Shown here piece by piece: positions 5,899 to 61,202 of a stretch of DNA of 64,000 nucleotides. A model generated the notes under the pieces. It searched no databases and was not told the DNA's origin. It saw nothing but the letters and a program-made list of their open reading frames with translations. Position 1 is the first letter of the stretch. Each line of letters starts with the position of its first letter. The DNA comes from Methanotrichaceae archaeon (lineage in GTDB: Archaea > Halobacteriota > Methanosarcinia > Methanotrichales > Methanotrichaceae), in the NCBI GenBank assembly GCA_963748825.1, contig CAVVKN010000004.1:32001-96000 (forward strand). The letters are read 5' to 3'. The translations under genes were made by a program, and so were the position numbers.

Positions 5899-6669
5899 AT
5901 GAAGCCCATAGCTTTCCTTCTCCTGGCCTTTTTCCTGGTAGCCATTCCGCCCGCCTTGAGCCAGGATGCCAATTATTGGCTTATTCAGACCCATAGCGAC
6001 TACAACAATGGATCTTACTCCCTGGCCTTGCAGGACATCGACGAATATCTGGATTTGAACTCCAGCGATACCTGGGCCTGGAGCTTTAAAGCCAATATTC
6101 TCCGAATTATGAAGAGATACAGTGAAGCCGCAGATAGCTTTGACCAGCTCATCCTCCTGGACGGCTCCAATGCTCAAGCCTACAACGACCGGGCCTTGAT
6201 CCTTTCTGGTGGCATGAGACAGCATGAGGAGGCCTTAAATTCCCTGGAGACTGCCTTGCGGATCAACCCCAATAATGCCAATTATTGGTTTAATAAAGGC
6301 ATGATCTTGGAGGAAACGAAACGATATGCAGAGGCATTGGAGGCCTACAGTCAGGCTGCAGCCTTAAACCCGTCTCTTGATAGAGCCTGGTACAGGCAAG
6401 GTTGGATCTCGGCAACAGAGGGCAACTACAATGAGTCTCTTCCTCTCCTGGACAAGGCGATCAAGCTCAATTCCAAGAACGCTGATGCCTGGAACACCAA
6501 AGGATTGGTCTTAATGAAGCTAAATTCCACAGAGGAGGCACAAAACTGCTTCGAGAAGGCAACCGCTCTGCAACCGTCCAACAGAGATTTCCAGCAGAAT
6601 CGACAAAAGGCGCTAGAGGGAATGGAAAAGGAGCCAGAGAAGACTATAGAGTTTAAAAGTTTGCAGTGA
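5899..6669 (+). CDS. Secreted tetratricopeptide repeat protein
   Basis: Signal peptide plus about six 34-aa TPRs (AW..KG..L.....Y.EA). Confidence 0.88.
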   Translation: MKPIAFLLLAFFLVAIPPALSQDANYWLIQTHSDYNNGSYSLALQDIDEYLDLNSSDTWAWSFKANILRIMKRYSEAADSFDQLILLDGSNAQAYNDRALILSGGMRQHEEALNSLETALRINPNNANYWFNKGMILEETKRYAEALEAYSQAAALNPSLDRAWYRQGWISATEGNYNESLPLLDKAIKLNSKNADAWNTKGLVLMKLNSTEEAQNCFEKATALQPSNRDFQQNRQKALEGMEKEPEKTIEFKSLQ

Positions 6670-6765
6670 GATTCAAAATTTTTTTGCGGAAATATTTTCT
6701 TAATAAAATTCTTGTTTTAAAATGAATGCCCAGGAGCTTGCTGAATGGGTACACCACCCACCGTT

Positions 6766-6867
6766 TCACTCTTTGAACAGACCTCTCAGGCCAGAGATTA
6801 TCCAAAATGCCATGCCCCATAAGACCAAGACTGTTAAGGTCATTAGCTCCATACTCAAATCCCTCAT
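6766..6867 (-). CDS. Putative 33-aa small membrane protein (MRDLSMELMTLTVLVLWGMAFWIISGLRGLFKE)
   Basis: Read by hand; one TM-like segment; TTTATG TATA-like box about 25 nt upstream of the ATG. Confidence 0.45.
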   Translation of the reverse strand: MRDLSMELMTLTVLVLWGMAFWIISGLRGLFKE

Positions 6868-6934
6868 GATTAAAAGTGAACTATTAACATAAATAGTTTG
6901 CTCTTGGGGACCATGAGATCAAGGTCAGTTCGAG

Positions 6935-7008
6935 AAAATGGGAGGGCGGGCAAAGTCTATGATGAACCATTTAGGAGGAAACAATGGTCTTGGTCGACTT
7001 TTGCCCGT
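6935..7008 (-). ncRNA. Candidate anti-SD hairpin sRNA, copy A
   Basis: TATA TTTATAT at 7035-7029; stem CGGGCAAAAGUC/GACUUUGCCCG; inner stem ACCAUU/AAUGGU with loop GUUUCCUCCUA; tail CCCUCCCAUUUU. Confidence 0.65.
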
Positions 7009-7052
7009 TTTGTGATCGTCACATGGCGATATAAAGATGTGGTACAGACTCG

Positions 7053-7170
7053 GTGAACTACCGCGTCCTGAGGATAGGACTTACCAATGTTTCGACTTCT
7101 CGTCGAAACTCTCGCTGAACCGCGGTCAGCGATATTCATCTCCCCTAGTCGTAACCCTGGGAGAATGCAA
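7053..7170 (-). mobile_element. Isolated IS200/IS605 right-end-like palindrome (possible PATE/remnant)
   Basis: 19 nt (GTGAACTACCGCGTCCTGA) identical to the tnpB element end at 47400; followed by several hairpins. Confidence 0.5.
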
Positions 7171-7215
7171 CTAAATAAAAAAATTTCCTAAATACAAAGG
7201 GATAGGCGCGGGGCC

Positions 7216-9609
7216 TCAGGTAATCCTGGCCACCGCTGACACCTCGTCCCCTGGCTTGACATTCATGATGCGCACGCCCTGCGTGGAGCGGCCCTGCACC
7301 CGGATCTCGCTGGTCGGAATTCTGATCACCACTCCGTCCTTGGTGGTAACCAGCAGCTCGTCATCCTCAGAGACGGTGGTGGTGCAGCATACGAAGCCCT
7401 TTCTGGCATCGATATTCTTGACGCCCTTGCCACCGCGCCTCTGCTGGGGATACTCCTCAAGCTCCGTCCTCTTTCCGTAGCCCTGATTGGTGATGGTGAG
7501 CAATGTGAAATTGGCGCTCGGCCGGATCACATCCATGCTGATAAGCTCGTCTCCCATGTTCAGGCTGATGGCCTTCACGCCCATGGTGCCTCGGTTGGAT
7601 GCGCGCACGTCATCCTCCTTGAAGCGTATGGCTTTGCCAAACCTGGTGGCCACCAATAGCTCCTTACTTCCGTCTGTGAGCTTGGCCGAGACCAGGCTGT
7701 CGCCCTTGAGATTTACGGCCTTGATGCCGCCTTTCCTGGGATTGGAAAAAGCCTGCAAGGGCATCTTGACAATGCTGCCGGCTCGGGTTACCAGGATTAT
7801 GAAGCCCGACTCGAAGCTCTTCACAGGTATGGCGCCCGTGATCTTCTCATCAGGCTCGAGCTGCAGAAGATTGACAATGGACTTTCCCCGAGTTGCCCGG
7901 CCCAGAGAGGGAACCTCGTAGACCTTGAGCCAGTGGGCCTTGCCCTTGTCCGTGAAGAAGAGCAGATAATCCTTGGTGGAGGCAGTAAAGACGTCGGTTA
8001 CAAACTCCTCACTCTTGGTCTCAGCACCAATGACTCCCCTCCCGCCACGCCTCTGCATGCGGTATGCCGTAAGCGGCTGGCGTTTGATGTACCCGGAAGA
8101 GGTGATGGTCACTGCCACCTCTTCATCCTGGATGAGATCCTCCCGGGAAACCTCGCCCTCCGCTTCGATGATCTGGGTTCTCCGCTCATCCCCGTAGGTA
8201 TTAATGAGATATGTCAGCTCATCTTTGATGATGCTCAAAATCTCCAGGTTGCTGGAGAGGATTTTCCTCAATTTAGCGATGAGCTTTTCCAGCTCTGCCG
8301 CCTCAGAGACGATCTTCTCCTGTTCGAGACCTGTGAGCCGCTGCAGCCTCATGTCCAAAATAGCCTTGGCCTGCTCTTCGCTGAGTGAAAAAGCCTGCAT
8401 CAGGGCATCTCTGGCCTCGACTGGAGACTGCGCCGCCTTGATTATTCTTATTACCTCATCGATGTTCTTGAGGGCGATGAGCAGACCCGCAAGGATGTGG
8501 GCCCTCTTCTCGGCAGCATCAAGCTCGAACCTGGTGCGCCTTTCTACCACTATTGAGCGGTAGTGGATGTACTGCTCAAGAGTGTCCTTCAAAGAGACTA
8601 TCTTGGGCAGGCCGTCCACCAAAACCATATTGTTGATGCCGTAGCTGGTCTGAAGAGCCGTGTGCTTATACAGTTGATTTAAGACCACATGAACATTAAA
8701 TCCACTCTTGACCTCCACCACCATGCGAATGCCGTCTCTATCCGACTCATCCCGCAGATCGGATATGCCCTCCAGACGGCCGCCTTTGACCATCTCTGCC
8801 ATATCCTCAATCAGCTTGGCCTTATTGACCTGGTAGGGAAGCTCAGTGAAGATGATCTTAGTGCTTCTCGTCCCTTCCTCAATCTCCGACTTGGCCTTCA
8901 TCAGAATGCTACCCTTGCCGGTTTGATAGGCGGCCTCAATGCCGACCCGGCCTACGATGTAGGCGCCGGTGGGAAAGTCGGGCCCGGGGAGAATGTGCAT
9001 CAGCTCGGAGAGCGTGGCCTGGGGCTCGTCGATGAGATGAATAATGGCCCCGCATAGCTCCGTCAGGTTATGGGGCGGAATATTGGTGGCCATTCCCACG
9101 GCAATGCCGGTAGAGCCGTTGAGCAGAAGGTTGGGCAGCTTTGCCGGTAGAACAGTGGGCTCTTTCATCGAGCCGTCGTAATTAGGGGTAAAGTCCACTG
9201 TGTTCTTCTCAATGTCCGCCAGCATCTCCTCAGCGATTTTGGAGAGGCGCACCTCAGTGTAACGCATAGCTGCAGCCGGGTCTCCATCAACGGAGCCAAA
9301 GTTGCCCTGGCCGTCGATGAGAGGATAACGCATGGAGAAGGTCTGGGCCATGCGCACCATGGTCTCATAGATGGCCGCATCCCCGTGGGGATGGTACTTA
9401 CCCATGACATCTCCCACCACACGTGCTGATTTCTTGTAGGGCTGGTCGTGGGTCATGCCCTGCTCATACATGGCATAGAGTATGCGACGATGAACGGGCT
9501 TGAGGCCATCCCGCACGTCGGGCAAAGCTCGACTTACGATCACACTCATAGCATAATCAATGTAGGAGGATTTCATCTCCTCAGTGATGTTAACCAATAC
9601 TTCTGTCAA
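7216..9609 (-). CDS. gyrA: DNA gyrase subunit A
   Basis: [35 protein letters not shown] catalytic Tyr, GyrA box QRRGGRG; TTG start after GAGGTG. Confidence 0.97.
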
Positions 9610-9631
9610 TAGCCACCTCAAATATCAGACA

Positions 9632-11530
<1,899 letters not shown>

Positions 11531-11754
11531 TTAAGCCTCCTGAATAATTAGGACTGTAACGAAATAACCTGAGACGATATAAGCTTTTCCCCAAAATATA
11601 TCTTAATTTTTATTTAAAAGTTTGATGCAATGCTTCATCCTGAATGATGAGGATAGTACTGAGGAACTGTACCTGTCGCATCGAGGACGAATGAATTGGC
11701 TCATGGGAGAAGACCTTCGAAAAATCTTGAGTGAGGATCTCATCAAATTATAAA

Positions 11755-11826
11755 AGCCAAGGTCCGGATTCGAACCGGAGTGGTAATGCTCTGCAGGCAT
11801 TTGCGTAGCCGCTCCGCCACCTTGGC
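11755..11826 (-). tRNA. tRNA-Cys(GCA)
   Basis: GCCAAGG acceptor stem; anticodon arm AATGC-CTGCAGA-GCATT; T-loop GGTTCGAATCC; no encoded CCA. Confidence 0.96.
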
Positions 11827-12121
11827 AAGGGGTATTGGCGTCCGACTTCTGTGTCGATCTGATTTAAACCTTTATCGGTTGGAGGCGCCCCTTGCGCCGC
11901 AACCTTGGGAGAGATGTCATCCCCTATAAAGATTGCCTTCGCGGCAAAAGATCTTGGGCAGAGTCAGGCCAGCACTTTTGTGACCTGCCAACCAGGGGGG
12001 CGCTGTGGATTCGGTGCAATCCCGCCCAGAACTCGATCATTCTGTTTTCGGGTTTACTTTTTCGAAGATTAAGCACTATTTTTTAGGGCGAAAACTATAT
12101 ATCGACAAAAGACTATATTAC

Positions 12122-12191
12122 GATCGGCAAAAGTCGAAGTAACTCTTTTCTCTCCCTCTGATCCCTGAGACTTTTGCCTCCCTCCTATTTT
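12122..12191 (+). ncRNA. Candidate anti-SD hairpin sRNA, copy B
   Basis: BRE/TATA CGAAAA-CTATATAT at 12089-12102; perfect 10-bp stem GGCAAAAGTC (12126-35)/GACTTTTGCC (12169-78); CU-rich loop; tail TCCCTCCT-ATTTT. Confidence 0.7.
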
Positions 12192-12269
12192 CATCTAGCT
12201 TTTTCCTTCATATTCCCCAGCAAGGAACATTTTTATATGGTTTGCCAGCCTCCTCGTGCCTGAAGCATT

Positions 12270-13616
12270 ATGGTCCTGGAAAACTTAGGCGGATCGCTGC
12301 GCAGTGCTCTAAAGAAGATTGCGTCGGCGAATAAGATCGACAAGGCTTTAGTAGACGATGCCGTGCGGGAGATTCAGCGGGCACTTTTGCAGGCAGATGT
12401 GAATGTGAAGCTAGTGATGCAGCTCTCCAACACCATCAAAGAGAGGGCGCTCAATGAAAAGCCGGCAGCGGGCATGAACCCACGCGAGCATGTCATCAAC
12501 ATCGTCTATAAGGAGCTGATCAACCTGGTAGGCCGTGGCTCGGACATTCCCCTGAAAAAGCAGAACATCATGCTCGTGGGCCTGCAAGGATCAGGAAAGA
12601 CCACCACTGCGGCGAAGCTTGCCACCTTCTTTCAACGAAAGGGGCTGCGAACGGCAGTCATCTGCGCAGATACCTTTCGAGCCGGTGCCTATGACCAGCT
12701 AAAAGCGCTCTGTGAAAAGCAGGGCATCTTTTTTTACGGAGACAGGGGCAATCCCGATGCGGCTGCTGTGGCGAAAGCCGGCCTGGAGGCCGCTAAGAAG
12801 TACGACGTTCGGATCGTCGATACCGCAGGAAGGCATGCCCTGGAAGGCGATCTGATCCAGGAGATGAAGGACATACATGCCGTGGTCAATGCCGAGCAAA
12901 AATTGCTGGTGATGGACGCCGCATTGGGCCAGCAGGCTTCCGAACAGGCGCGCGCCTTCAACGAAGCGGTGCAGATCACGGGCGTCATCATCACCAAGCT
13001 GGACGGCACAGCCAAGGGCGGCGGAGCACTCTCGGCCGTGGCGGAGACCAAGACCTCCGTGGCCTTCATTGGCATGGGCGAGACGCCGGCCGACCTGGAG
13101 AAGTTCGAGGCGGACCGCTTCATCTCCCGCATGCTGGGCATGGGCGATATCAAGACGCTCATCGAGAGGGCCCAGGAGGTGCAGACCGACAGCCAGGTGG
13201 ACGTTGAATCGCTCATGCGGGGCAAGTTCACCCTGAAAGATATGTACCAGCAGATGGAGGCCATGAACAAGCTGGGACCCTTAAAGCAGATCATGCAGAT
13301 GCTGCCCATGGGTGGCCTGGGGCTGGATCTTTCCGACAAAGAGTACCAGATGACCAAAGATCGCCTGGACAAGTACCGGGTGGTCATGGACTCCATGACG
13401 GCGAAAGAGCTTGAGGACCCCAAGATAATAACCGCATCGCGTATCAAGCGCATTTCCCGGGGCAGCGGCGCAACTCCGGATGTGGTTCGCGAGCTTCTCA
13501 AATCCCATCAGGCCATGCAAAAGGCAATCAAAGGCATGAGAGGCGGGGCCGGCAAGATGAATATGAAGCGCCTCATGAAGAGATTTTCTCCGGGAACGAA
13601 GACCGGAGAAATGTAA
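12270..13616 (+). CDS. srp54: Signal recognition particle protein SRP54
   Basis: [27 protein letters not shown], Met-rich M domain, [11 protein letters not shown]. Confidence 0.97.
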
Positions 13617-46103: not shown

Positions 46104-46194
46104 GGAGATACTATGGGCAGGGGTCTGAGATGAAAGCAGCTGCAGAGGATGGCAGCATTTCCAAGAGAGAAGGTGCAAGTCACAAAATTGTGTA

Positions 46195-46261
46195 ATTAGG
46201 AGGGAGGCAAAAGTCCTGAAACATAGGAGGGAAAGAAATGAGTCTTCGACCTTTGCCAATC
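46195..46261 (-). ncRNA. Candidate anti-SD hairpin sRNA, copy C
   Basis: BRE/TATA CGAAAT-CCTTAAATA at 46296-46282; stem GGCAAAGGUC/GACUUUUGCC (one G-U); loop CAUUUCUUUCCCUCCUAUG; tail UCCCUCCU. Confidence 0.7.
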
Positions 46262-57981: not shown

Positions 57982-58647
57982 ATGTTTGTTTCGATAATAA
58001 TACCGATAAAAGATGAGCCTGCCATTCAAGAGCTTATTGAGGATCTAAATAAGGCAATAAAACAAAATCATGAAATAATTATTGTTGATAAAAGCAAGGT
58101 TACGCCTAATATTCAGGATGCAAGAATCATATCTCAGAGATCTGATGGCCTTGGCAATGCCTTCGTTGAAGGTTTGAGCAAAGCAAATGGCGATGTAATA
58201 GCACTAATGGATGGCGACGGTTCACACAGACCGGAAGATTTGAATAATTTGTTAAGCAAAATTGGAGAATATGATATAGCACTTGGCTCCAAGCTTATAG
58301 AAGGTGGGCAAAGTCATGATTCAATAGGTAGAAAGACTGTCACACTTGTTTTTTCTCTGTTAACCCGATTGATTTTATGGGTAGACATAAAAGATCCGAT
58401 GACTGGGTTTATGGCTGCAAAAAGGAGCGTGTTTAGGGATCTAACGCTCAAACCCAGGGGTTTCAAAATAGTAATTGAAATTGTATATAAATCTCAGGCA
58501 AATACTACAGAAGTTCCTATCCTATTCCGAGAGAGACAAGGTGGGGCTTCAAAAGCAGGCTTCAATGCAAATGGTCTTAAAGAGGTTTTCTTGATAATTA
58601 AGACCCTATTCGGGCTAAGAATGGGGCGATTGAGGGGATACTGGTAA
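57982..58647 (+). CDS. GT2 polyprenol-phosphate glycosyltransferase (Dpm1/GtrB-like)
   Basis: SIIIPIKDE, IIVD, GLGNA, MDGDGSH, DPMTGF, RGFKI, EVPILFRER. Confidence 0.88.
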   Translation: MFVSIIIPIKDEPAIQELIEDLNKAIKQNHEIIIVDKSKVTPNIQDARIISQRSDGLGNAFVEGLSKANGDVIALMDGDGSHRPEDLNNLLSKIGEYDIALGSKLIEGGQSHDSIGRKTVTLVFSLLTRLILWVDIKDPMTGFMAAKRSVFRDLTLKPRGFKIVIEIVYKSQANTTEVPILFRERQGGASKAGFNANGLKEVFLIIKTLFGLRMGRLRGYW

Positions 58648-58741
58648 ATCGTTGATTAGAGGACACTCATAACTTTAGTTGTTTATCACTCCAGTATTTT
58701 CTTAGCGAGGGGTTATATAGCGATGTTTGAGAAGAGGATCA

Positions 58742-59179
58742 ATGGACTTGAGGGGGGATCAATTAATTGGTGCTAAGATTAGTGGTCACCGGAAAACCAT
58801 ATCCAAATTTGCCTTTGTTGGGGCAATTGGGGCTATTATTAATCTGTCTTTGTTGTGGTTTTTAACAAGTGTTGGCTTATTATACTACATTTTTTCGGCA
58901 ATTATCGCGATTGAGGTGAGCATATTTTGTAATTTTTATTTAAATTCTAAGATAACATTTGATTATCAGTTCTTGAATAGATCGGACATTGTTTCGGCAA
59001 TTTTTAGATATCATTTAGCATCCTTGCTTGGGATATTAGTTAATATTTTAACGCTGATTATCTTAACTGAATATTTTAAAATATTTTATTTGGTTTCAGA
59101 GATTATAGCAATTTTCTCAGCCTTTGGATTAAATTATTTTATTAGTATAAATTGGGTATGGAACAAACCGGGCGGATGA
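58742..59179 (+). CDS. GtrA-family flippase-like membrane protein
   Basis: KFAFVGAIGAIIN, NFYLNSKITF, NYFISINWVW; four TM segments. Confidence 0.88.
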   Translation: MDLRGDQLIGAKISGHRKTISKFAFVGAIGAIINLSLLWFLTSVGLLYYIFSAIIAIEVSIFCNFYLNSKITFDYQFLNRSDIVSAIFRYHLASLLGILVNILTLIILTEYFKIFYLVSEIIAIFSAFGLNYFISINWVWNKPGG

Positions 59180-59381
59180 AAACGTCATTCACTAGTCAAA
59201 TTGCGGCGGCACGCCACTGTCAAGTACTTTCCTCTAATTTTTATGTACTAGATAAAAAAAGGAAAGCGTATTTACATCTTTTGTTAAAGTTAGAGTACTG
59301 AGGGTAACTTTTATAACTGAACGAAGAGTCGAACCACTGAAGTGCTGACGCACTTGAGGTAAGAAGGAGGGAGGTAGAAGG

Positions 59382-61202
59382 ATGGAGCAATCATCGCAGA
59401 AAGCTCGTATCAAAGTCATCAGCGAGCATATCACTAATATTTTCTCAAATGAGAAAAATGTTCTGATTGCATTGATGCTCTTTGGCCTACTCTGTCGCCT
59501 TTTCAACCTGGCCACTCCTCTTCTGGATTATCATAGTTGGCGGCAAACTGACACAGCAGCCATAGCCAGAAATTTTTATTACAATGGATTTAATATTTTT
59601 TATCCGCAAATAGACTGGGGAGGGGCCGGCCCGGGATATGTTGAAGCAGAATTTCAATTAGTTCCATTTATAATTGCTATATTTTATAAAATATTTGGAG
59701 TTCATGAATATGTAGCCCGGCTTGTAATCATAGCTTTTTCAGTAGGTTCTATTTATCTTCTTTATAAAATGGTGCGCATTTACTACAGCAGAAGGGTAGC
59801 TATCTTCAGCGCAATTTTCTTTATTATATCTCCTATGGAGCTATATTTTGGCAGGACCGTTATGCCAGATTCAGCCATGATTTTCTTTTCGATTGGTTCA
59901 CTATATTTTTTTAATAAATGGACCAATGACGAAAAAAATGGCTCATTGATTTTGGCGATAATCTGCACAACCCTTGCCTTCCTTGTAAAGATATCCACGC
60001 TATATTTGGGATTGCCTTTGCTCTGGTTGGCATACACTAAGTACGGAAAGAGGTTTTTATTCGAACCAAAGCTCTACATCTTCACTATACTTATATTAAT
60101 TCCCCCAGTTATGTGGTATTATTTTGCCCATTCAGTTCTTGCCCAGTACAATACATTTGATTTTTGGAACCTTGGCAGCGGGAGCAAATTTGCCAGCCTC
60201 GAAACGCTTACTGATCCGTGGATTTACACAACTCTCGCCACAAGGTTGGTAATCTACATATTCACGCCAGTCGGGTTGCTGCTATTTATCTACGCACTAT
60301 CTTTGAAGACGAAGCTCAAGGATTACGTATTTCATTTCTGGGTCCTAGCCGTAATCATCTTTTTTTTGCTGGTTCCTCTTGGCAACATTGGCAATGACTA
60401 CTACCAACGAGCATTGATTCCTGCCGTAGCAGTCTTTGTGGGAAGAGCTCTCTCTGAGGTGTATGAAAAAAAGAAGATATTACCATTCATTCTTGTTGCT
60501 TTCATATCGATATCATCCGTTTACTATATGGCCCCCGCATATGATCAAGGTTATGTAATCCTTGATGCAGGGACTATGGTAGATAAGGTAACCAGCCAGA
60601 ATGACCTAATAATAACAACCTCATGGATAGGCTCGAGTCCAAATATATTATATTATTCAAATAGAAAAGGCTGGGTAGTTCCAGCGGAAAGATGGTCAGA
60701 GGAGACCATTGAGCAGATGAAAGTACAGGGTGCAAAATTCTTGGTGATTGCTCCACAGTCATTGCTTTCAGATAATCCCCAATTTGCCAATCAAATCTTC
60801 AGTAATTATAGGTCGCTCATTGGTAGTAATTTCGTGATATTTGATTTGTCTCTGCCAAGCGATATAAACCGCTCACCAAATCAGACTGATATAGCCTTCA
60901 AAGGCAGTGGTGCACTCGTCGGTGGAAATATGGAAGAAAGCACCTCAGGTCTCCTGAATATAACCTGTTATTATAATAGATCTGATGTAAATATTAATAC
61001 AAATAGAATAAATGGAAAATATTACGTTCTTGGGGTTGATTTTATGGATAAAGACGGTCAAATAGTACGTGAGAATCGATTCTTCACCAGCGAACTATCC
61101 CCCAGTGGCATCACAAAGAATAACTATGTGACTTCATTGTCTTCAGATGAGAAAGCGAAGATATATGATGCTCAAGTAAAACTTGGCGAAATAGAATTCT
61201 AA
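59382..61202 (+). CDS. GT-C fold (ArnT/PMT-like) membrane glycosyltransferase
   Basis: HSWRQTDTAAIARNF, EFQL, GRTVMPD, LVK, YYQ, LYYSNRKGW; about 11 TM segments. Confidence 0.88.
   Translation: MEQSSQKARIKVISEHITNIFSNEKNVLIALMLFGLLCRLFNLATPLLDYHSWRQTDTAAIARNFYYNGFNIFYPQIDWGGAGPGYVEAEFQLVPFIIAIFYKIFGVHEYVARLVIIAFSVGSIYLLYKMVRIYYSRRVAIFSAIFFIISPMELYFGRTVMPDSAMIFFSIGSLYFFNKWTNDEKNGSLILAIICTTLAFLVKISTLYLGLPLLWLAYTKYGKRFLFEPKLYIFTILILIPPVMWYYFAHSVLAQYNTFDFWNLGSGSKFASLETLTDPWIYTTLATRLVIYIFTPVGLLLFIYALSLKTKLKDYVFHFWVLAVIIFFLLVPLGNIGNDYYQRALIPAVAVFVGRALSEVYEKKKILPFILVAFISISSVYYMAPAYDQGYVILDAGTMVDKVTSQNDLIITTSWIGSSPNILYYSNRKGWVVPAERWSEETIEQMKVQGAKFLVIAPQSLLSDNPQFANQIFSNYRSLIGSNFVIFDLSLPSDINRSPNQTDIAFKGSGALVGGNMEESTSGLLNITCYYNRSDVNINTNRINGKYYVLGVDFMDKDGQIVRENRFFTSELSPSGITKNNYVTSLSSDEKAKIYDAQVKLGEIEF

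Follow-up and report, generated by a model that had tools for sequence, protein, structure and literature searches.

The small RNAs (sRNAs) sRNA41 and sRNA154 of Methanosarcina mazei are described as occluding ribosome-binding sites (RBSs), and this masking represses translation of several genes or acts within polycistronic mRNAs (PMC5867862, PMC6560208). In the Alphaproteobacteria, the cuckoo RNAs (CcsR/RSs0680, SmelA075/SmelA099 and relatives) occur as multiple siblings per genome, some of them in tandem clusters of up to 9, with an only partly conserved genomic context, and their hairpins carry a conserved C-rich loop motif, CCUCCUCCC, that resembles an anti-Shine-Dalgarno (anti-SD) sequence (PMC4615179). 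Here we analyze a 64,000-nt stretch of a Methanotrichaceae genome (genome G000; contig CAVVKN010000004.1, positions 32,001 to 96,000; hereafter the window), in which a short element downstream of gyrA, designated copy A, belongs to a previously undescribed Methanotrichaceae (Methanothrix; acetate-eating methanogens) family of predicted sRNA genes of about 70 nt. Siblings with several C-rich motifs that lie in loops and in a single-stranded stretch and pair with Shine-Dalgarno (SD) regions are also found in LhrC1-5 of Listeria and the UCCC-motif sRNAs of Staphylococcus, which are bacterial, unrelated in sequence to the family described here, and dependent on bacterial terminator hairpins. With sRNA41 and loop 2 of sRNA154 the family shares the archaeal class, an intergenic location, an own promoter and anti-RBS sequences in unpaired regions, whereas the two reports, as far as their descriptions go, do not present the M. 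mazei RNAs as families of 2-17 copies (PMC5867862, PMC6560208). It should be noted that this likeness is one of description, and that the family is known here from sequence alone. With the cuckoo RNAs it has in common the sibling copies, a tandem cluster (four copies at G000:C14:28298-28771) and a C-rich anti-SD loop motif. However, the cuckoo RNAs are described as bacterial RNAs of 2-4 neighbouring hairpins, in which the stems vary with many compensatory changes and every loop has CCUCCUCCC (PMC4615179). Membership of that group was rejected, because the present family has a single outer hairpin with a nearly invariant stem, the motif CCUCC/CCCUCC instead of CCUCCUCCC, a second motif in the 3' tail, and an archaeal promoter.

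Copy A lies on the minus strand, 209 nt downstream of gyrA, and is convergent with a TPR-repeat gene (5899-6669, plus strand); the coordinates of its parts are given in Table 1. The first-pass annotation of the window had drawn a TATA box, a spacer, a stem and a CCCUCCC-AUUUU tail on the minus strand, and all of these are present where it had put them, the spacer measuring 22 nt. Since the distance from the centre of the TATA box to the transcription start is usually about 26-27 nt in archaea, transcription is predicted to start at about 7006-7008 on the minus strand, and the AUUUU at 6939-6935 is likely to be the termination region. The outer stem is the variant GGGCAAA(A)GUC/GACUUUGCCC with one bulged A, which is common to all orthologs of copy A (the A-type), and a loop region of 38 nt separates its arms. 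When bases 7012-6930 were folded as RNA, an energy of -23 kcal/mol was obtained, as compared to -12.0 +/- 2.5 kcal/mol for 200 dinucleotide shuffles (z = -4.34; 0/200 as good), and both the CCUCC of the loop and the CCCUCCC of the tail are unpaired in the minimum-energy fold. The A-type promoter has CCACA where other copies have a CGAAA element resembling the B recognition element (BRE), and the stretch upstream of the TATA box, GTACCACA(T/C)C at 7036-7046, is conserved among A-type orthologs. We consider it very likely that copy A is a functional sRNA gene.

To find further members in this genome (2.88 Mb in 25 contigs), a regular expression for the two stem arms was followed by covariance model R1, which was built from alignment A1 of 15 copies. 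This yielded 16 copies at E <= 6e-5, of which 3 are located in the window and 13 elsewhere, and thus bears out the further copies mentioned in the first pass. Copy A has a model score of 50.3 bits (E = 6e-10) and is itself among the 15 seed sequences; its orthologs, which are not seeds, score 43.5-48.3 bits. The earlier description of copy A as the most diverged copy was nearly right, although it ranks 14th of the 16 by model score and not last, and it does keep the stem, the anti-SD loop, the tail and the promoter spacing of the family. The common plan comprises a promoter, (C)GAAA-NN-CTTTTATAT or CTTAAATA, a spacer of about 22-23 nt that often reads CGGCAATTGACGTATAG.., and an RNA composed of GGC(A/G)AA(A/G)GUC, a loop of 20-38 nt with (U)UUCCCUCCUAC.., GACUUUUGCC, UCCCUCCU and a U-rich stretch. 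The stem of 10-11 bp, GGCAAAAGUC/GACUUUUGCC, closes the large loop, the motif of which is CCUCC in copy A and CCCUCC in most copies. In the tandem cluster each of the four copies has its own TATA box, and the copies are spaced by 120-180 nt. Each of the 14 loci examined lies between genes (for the C14 tandem cluster, only the two ends were checked). No function is common to the flanking genes, which include gyrB and an SRP54 gene, a GntP permease and a Trm5/Tyw2 gene, and genes for TPR proteins, a P-type ATPase, transposases and a cation-efflux protein, among others. At 6 loci, which account for 7 of the 16 copies, the closest gene called downstream is in convergent orientation. Intergenic location, heterogeneous neighbours and convergent downstream genes together argue that the element is neither a leader nor a 3' untranslated region (3' UTR).

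Searches against described RNAs did not return the family. Rfam 15, applied to the window at the gathering threshold, matched 2 tRNAs only and nothing at the family loci, and at E <= 1 ten family loci gave a single chance match to mir-266 (E = 0.52). Readings as a C/D-box, H/ACA or tRNA-like RNA were dropped, since no box motifs are in register and neither Rfam nor ARAGORN gave a match. Full-text literature searches for sRNAs or non-coding RNAs of Methanothrix/Methanosaeta, judged at the level of listings and abstracts, retrieved no description of the family. A regulon search with the promoter-proximal element TCGGCAATTGACGTATA gave 7 sites at up to 3 mismatches in the genome, 5 of them sRNA loci. 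Similar tandem clusters were seen in G005 (938463-938793) and G052 (3420784-3420973). At G000:C3:125408 (plus strand) the sequence TATTTAT-TCGGCAATTGAAATATT, followed by ..UUGCAUCCUCCAC.., resembles the family promoter and C-rich motif and has no recognisable stem; this stretch may be a degenerate copy or a related RNA.

The strand that is transcribed can be read from the conservation of promoter and stem. In 49 aligned Methanotrichaceae copies the promoter, (C)GAAA..TTTATAT or TTAAATA, is found at a fixed spacing, with the box 22-23 nt before the stem. The stem statistics were calculated from a 55-sequence alignment (A3) fitted to model R1. Standard pairs occupy 96.4% of the 549 stem cells, whereas partners slid by one column give only 56-60%, and changes on both sides were observed in 3 of the 10 stem pairs, a level reached by 8 of 500 shuffles. 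Among the stem cells we counted 34 G.U or U.G pairs versus 1 A.C or C.A pair. Because the G.U cells would be mismatches on the opposite strand, this asymmetry and the orientation of the promoter indicate that the family is a structured transcript of the strand that carries the TATA box, which for copy A is the minus strand, as the first-pass annotation had proposed. In the minimum-energy folds of nearly all 55 sequences the whole C-rich motif of the loop is free of pairing, and the motif of the tail is single-stranded as well. Contigs from four metatranscriptome runs were compared with window positions 6000-13000: gyrA, gyrB and their neighbours are covered by related strains, and there is essentially no cover at 6936-7169 and 11616-12283, a comparison limited by the contig form of the data, the shortness of such RNAs and relatives at 90-95% identity.

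All 24 genomes of the genus searched with model R1 carry the family, with 4-13 copies each, and three complete genomes have 13, 13 and 12 copies. In a class-wide draw of 150 further genomes searched with the same model, the family was found in 64 of the 64 genomes assigned to the Methanotrichaceae by their public record titles (2-17 copies each), and, mostly as a single copy, in 30/76, 5/6, 3/3 and 0/1 genomes of other families of the class. Model R1 gave no match in two genera of the sister family that have large genomes (0/21 and 0/6 genomes). A pattern scan of public species-representative genomes returned at least 119 stretches, and all 80 of those listed bear the titles Methanothrix, Methanosaeta, Methanotrichaceae or (uncultured) Methanosarcinales. 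In the distant single-copy relatives the TATA spacing is the same, an identical stem, GGCAAAAGUCGA...GACUUUUGCC, encloses a longer AU-rich loop with AUCCCCUCU, and a C-rich tail is absent. From this distribution and from the build of the relatives we infer that the element is an old RNA of the class that was amplified in the Methanotrichaceae and gained its second C-rich motif there. For five single-copy relatives in another family of the class (L232-L236, from G032-G035 and G039), the neighbouring genes are not conserved; in one genome the neighbours are a DUF2117 gene and a sodium:solute symporter gene, and in another they are genes for a metallo-beta-lactamase and a histidine kinase.

A multi-copy element could also be a DNA-level repeat, or a decaying duplicate without a function of its own, that was spread for example by recombination or by mobile elements. 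Some copies do adjoin transposase genes (the C3 and C6 loci), and the copy behind gyrA in G021 is truncated. This reading is nevertheless very unlikely, given that all 64 Methanotrichaceae genomes searched carry copies, that the promoter stays at a fixed spacing although the loops diverge, that the stem shows the 34:1 bias of G.U over A.C, that the A-type occupies one syntenic site in 7 genomes, and that the element is without terminal inverted repeats.

Orthologs of copy A were identified behind gyrA in G001, G016, G024 and G071 with model R1, which found the element at 5 of 30 gyrA 3' loci with this genome counted, and two more (G002 and G057) were identified by BLAST, so that with G000 the A-type is present in 7 genomes. 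The orthologs keep the stem, the sequence UUUCCUCCUAA(A/G)UG(U/G)UUCAUC(A/G)UC and the tail CGCCCUCCCAU; in the 4 orthologs aligned behind gyrA, the motif within this tail does not vary. An inner helix with CCUCC(U) in a loop of 6-11 nt is kept in G024, G071 and G016 and is weak in G001. What is conserved in the A-type is the anti-SD core in an apical loop of 6-11 nt, together with the tail. Behind gyrA in G021 (L182, G021:C2:135950-136350) the promoter, the 5' arm and the CCUCC loop are present and the 3' arm and the tail are gone; this copy is a truncated or disrupted A-type ortholog. In G016 and G001 the A-type promoter directly follows the gyrA stop codon, and copy A stands downstream of gyrA on the same strand, as would be the case for a cis element of gyrA, either a terminator or a 3' UTR structure. 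However, the element has its own TATA box, which is kept in G016 and G001 as well, the other 15 copies are at unrelated loci, 6 of which have a convergent called downstream gene, and most gyrA 3' loci lack the element. We therefore regard a cis function for gyrA as highly improbable.

In the first-pass annotation, copy A had been taken to be made as the complement of an entire translation start. The sequence on which this was based, CAUUGUUUCCUCCU, is located exactly as claimed (6986-6973, minus strand), and its complement, AGGAGGAAACAAUG, is a perfect AGGAGG-N5-AUG that opens a 16-codon plus-strand open reading frame (ORF), MVLVDFCPFCDRHMAI. The proposal as such is not supported. The inner hairpin was said to present the full anti-start, yet the minimum-energy loop consists only of GUUUCCUCCUA, and the CAU is paired within the helix. 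The 5' half of the loop region varies, with CCAUUG in this genome and AAUCG, AAUAU (twice), CAGUG, AAUUG and AAAUG in the orthologs, and the anti-start CAU is kept in none of the 6 orthologs. In this genome the CC of GACCAUU pairs with the GG of AAUGGUU, whereas the orthologs lack that GG (AAUGUUU). Because this pairing is peculiar to this genome, the CAU appears to be a side effect of the local inner helix. In roughly 8% of sequences a CAU would be expected 3-7 nt upstream of a C-rich motif, and 6 of the 16 copies have one; the complementarity of copy A to a full start is not beyond chance, and the match to an SD plus start codon is a peculiarity of this genome. The same letters could be taken as a plus-strand micro-gene, in which AGGAGG-N5-ATG drives a 16-codon peptide (6984-7034). 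Its SD and spacing are ideal in this genome, and opposite-strand ATGs are found in the same register in a few paralogs (C14:28478 and C25). Against this, the ORF reads into the TATA box that is conserved on the opposite strand, an ATG is found at that place in only those 6 copies, and the G.U bias points to a minus-strand RNA. The plus-strand ORF was rejected, as none of the 6 orthologs has the ATG and lengths of 76 versus 77 nt break the frame, and we rate a micro-gene as extremely unlikely.

The 3' end of the 16S rRNA of this genome reads ...GGAUCACCUCCU (also written ...GAUCACCUCCU), which corresponds to an SD sequence of GGAGG, and GGAGG is most frequent at positions -15 to -11 ahead of ORF starts (found at 146 of the 2616 crude starts). 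The two C-rich motifs of the family therefore have the polarity and sequence of an anti-SD. As a measure of SD use, SD strength is weakly discriminating when compared with an internal-codon control (36% versus 28% at -9 kcal/mol). We scanned the genome for exact k-mers antisense to all 16 sRNAs, taking sites of at least 12 nt and two controls. Just before ORF starts there are 35 antisense sites, compared with 11 and 18 in the controls. The longest of all 283 sites belongs to sister copy C, in the loop of which 18 nt are perfectly antisense to AGGAGGGAAAGAAAUGAG at G000:C9:270516-270533, comprising the SD, the spacer, the AUG and 2 further bases of a gene (G000:C9:270529-271257) for a 242-aa protein with a signal peptide. 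Copy C thus has a conserved antisense match to a complete translation start, which is the principle proposed in the first pass, on a different copy. The 14-nt core of the site occurs in the genome only at this gene and at its two tandem paralogs. The 13-nt seed CUCAUUUCUUUCC, placed at the correct distance from the 3' stem arm, has exact matches in 28 of 59 genomes of the genus (16 of 30 high-quality genomes) and in none when searched backwards as a control. In the C-type copies this seed has been conserved more strictly than the CCUCC behind it. On the side of the target, the complement of the seed, GGGAAAGAAATGAG, is present in 34 of 52 starts of the 242-aa gene family, from 20 of 29 genomes. 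The protein family is represented in all 59 genomes of the genus (3-29 matches per genome at 74-93% identity) and matches no model in Pfam or NCBIfam; it may be an abundant envelope protein. In at least 2 genomes (G013:C6 and G017:C14) a C-type gene and a member of the target family share a strand, with the C-type gene 0.5-1 kb upstream. The multi-copy 242-aa family is the predicted target of the C-type sRNAs.

The trans-acting RBS masking that the first-pass annotation had suggested is the best reading of the family by virtue of the genus-conserved 13-18-nt match of copy C; for copy A no target was found. According to this reading, a stand-alone gene of about 70 nt, of which copy A would be a divergent A-type sibling, would be transcribed from its own archaeal BRE/TATA promoter into a single hairpin with a nearly invariant stem. 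The large loop would display the C-rich anti-SD motif, and the second motif, CCCUCCC, would remain single-stranded directly 3' of the stem, before a U-rich end. Loop, tail or both would then pair in trans with the purine-rich ribosome-binding region of an mRNA, in some siblings with pairing that extends across the spacer and the start codon, and this would keep the 30S subunit from binding and reduce translation. The variable flanks of the loop would direct each sibling to a target of its own. We hold this complete mechanism, that of a stand-alone sRNA gene of about 70 nt acting by RBS masking in trans, to be somewhat more probable than its alternatives taken together.

Several observations weigh against it. 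The small RNA is known at present only as DNA, and its production, its ends and any repression by pairing are what we infer from that DNA. The crude estimate of SD use suggests that only a minority of genes have a strong SD, and the total number of antisense sites of at least 12 nt, 283, is close to the 246 and 246 of the controls. Relatives outside the Methanotrichaceae have CCCCUC and not CCUCC, and are without the tail motif. For copy A, a search of the whole genome for sites like AGGAGGAAACAAUG, which had been named as its target, found the exact 14-mer nowhere but at the copy A locus itself. Conserved complements of the A-type loop and tail in 5 A-type genomes were found only at sRNA loci and otherwise at control level. 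The best local candidate for copy A is the translation start of adenylate kinase, with a match of 13 nt that the other A-type genomes do not preserve (10 nt in G016 and less in G001, G071 and G002). A ranking of 15,231 candidate starts by duplex energy (duplexfold) was no better than that for sRNAs with shuffled flanks. Finally, the stem is conserved in sequence, and not merely in pairing, across families of the class. This invariance is not explained by regulation through base pairing alone and hints at a protein partner.

The main rival to RBS masking is accordingly that the RNA binds or scaffolds a protein, which would recognise the stem GGCAAAAGUC/GACUUUUGCC, the C-rich motifs or both, and would be titrated or guided by the RNA. 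The Methanotrichaceae copies and the single-copy relatives of other families have the same stem sequence, with changes on both sides in only 3 of 10 pairs, and two identical C-rich motifs per RNA together with many siblings recall the titrating RNAs of bacteria. On the other hand, no candidate protein and no conserved neighbouring gene were identified for the family, and the genus-conserved match of the C-type loops argues for base pairing. The two readings are compatible, and we consider protein binding as the principal function to be rather unlikely. As a further alternative, the hairpin followed by a single-stranded CCUCC could mimic the 3' end of 16S rRNA and divert, as a decoy, a factor by which the anti-SD end is recognised or cleaved. 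A hairpin does precede the tail, ..CCCUCC(U), as it does the 16S end, ..CACCUCCU, but this resemblance is only formal, the relatives outside the family lack the tail motif, and the loop seeds reach into gene-specific sequence, which leaves such mimicry a very slight chance.

The search for targets of copy A was also run with mismatches. With up to 2 mismatches the 14-mer has 32 sites in the genome, none of which is a convincing gene start; the sites with one mismatch are located at a 43-codon ORF and inside three transposase copies. For the majority-type loop, the extended target GAUGUAGGAGGG gave only 2 sites with TGTAGGAGGG in the genome, and the better one is before an 18-codon ORF. The tail GCCUCCCUCCUUCUUA of majority-type copies, but not that of copy A, is complementary over 15 nt to TAAGAAGGAGGGAGG at the SD of a PMT_2 glycosyltransferase gene in the window (Table 1). 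This gene is strain-specific, being present in 0 of 58 other genomes of the genus. The PMT_2 gene is part of a low-GC block (57982-61202) that has a GC content of 0.37 at 58-60 kb versus about 0.52 elsewhere and contains GT2, GtrA-like and PMT_2 glycosyltransferase genes; because the PMT_2 gene is absent from the other genomes of the genus, the block is probably an acquired glycosylation island.

Two further features were observed beside copy A. Just downstream of it, a hydrophobic ORF of 28 codons, MELMTLTVLVLWGMAFWIISGLRGLFKE, with a GAGGG SD (6766-6852, minus strand) may be a gene for a small membrane protein, and the stretch 6770-6903 around it is 72-84% identical in several other genomes. 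Between the gyrA stop codon and the copy A promoter lies a repeat of about 75 nt (7067-7140, minus strand) with two hairpins, GCUGA..UCAGC and UUUCGAC..GUCGAAA. Five more copies were found elsewhere in this genome (83-98% identity) and many in other members of the genus (83-95%); the repeat is absent between gyrA and the sRNA promoter in G016 and G001, where the promoter directly follows gyrA. This repeat could be a small mobile element or another small RNA.

Table 1. Coordinates of copy A, its parts, its sister copies and the genes discussed in the text. Positions are those of the window unless a genome and contig are given.
Feature	Position	Strand	Remarks
Copy A, predicted small RNA gene	7035-6935 including promoter; covariance-model match 6932-7008	minus	divergent A-type member
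TATA box TTTATAT of copy A	7029..7035	minus	22 nt before first stem base G7006; read from the sequence
5' arm of outer stem, C-GGGCAAAAGUC	6996..7007 (GGGCAAAAGUC = 7006-6996)	minus	from the fold
Inner hairpin	6965..6989	minus	helix 6989-6983 with 6971-6965 (G6989-U6983 with A6971-U6965); 11-nt apical loop GUUUCCUCCUA (6982-6972)
Anti-SD CCUCC of copy A	6978-6974	minus	within apical loop
CAU of copy A	6986-6984	minus	inside inner helix
3' arm of outer stem, GACUUUGCCC-G	6947..6957 (GACUUUGCCC = 6957-6948)	minus	from the fold and stem statistics
Single-stranded 3' tail	6935..6946	minus	CCCUCCC (6946-6940), then AUUUU (6939-6935)
gyrA	7216..9621	minus	Pfam DNA_topoisoIV and DNA_gyraseA_C; upstream of copy A, same strand
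Sister copy B	12123..12194	plus	66.6 bits; 92 nt upstream of SRP54 gene
Sister copy C	46190..46260	minus	68.3 bits; loop ..GACUCAUUUCUUUCCCUCCU.. antisense to translation start
Candidate target site TAAGAAGGAGGGAGG	59360..59374	plus	covers SD of PMT_2 glycosyltransferase gene (59382-61202)
242-aa family genes	G000:C9:268210-271257 (three tandem) and 274279-274989		translation start almost invariant, AAGGAGGUGGGAAAGAAAUGAGAAA

Methanothrix species are among the most important methane producers on Earth, and they grow slowly and lack genetic tools. To our knowledge, little has been established about post-transcriptional regulation in Methanothrix, very few archaeal sRNAs have a known target, and we know of no dedicated sRNA chaperone for such RNAs in the Methanosarcinia lineage. 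As a speculation that we consider unlikely, the family could be a programmable repressor of the Methanosarcinia, in which a constant 10-bp 'handle' for an archaeal RNA-binding protein is combined with a variable 'guide' loop that has an anti-SD core and gene-specific flanks; in the Methanotrichaceae the handle would have been duplicated up to 17 times and supplied with a second anti-SD seed, and siblings would have been retargeted, for example the C-type against the secreted-protein family. If true, this would be an archaeal counterpart of chaperone-dependent sRNA networks. The invariant stem also gives a starting point in the search for an archaeal sRNA-binding protein. The family is easily recognised from its sequence and is present in every Methanotrichaceae genome searched. 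For annotation, it accounts for dozens of conserved 'empty' intergenic regions and comes with a covariance model open to reuse. The loop of the C-type and the highly conserved start of a multi-copy signal-peptide protein provide a concrete, testable pair of a predicted sRNA and its predicted target.

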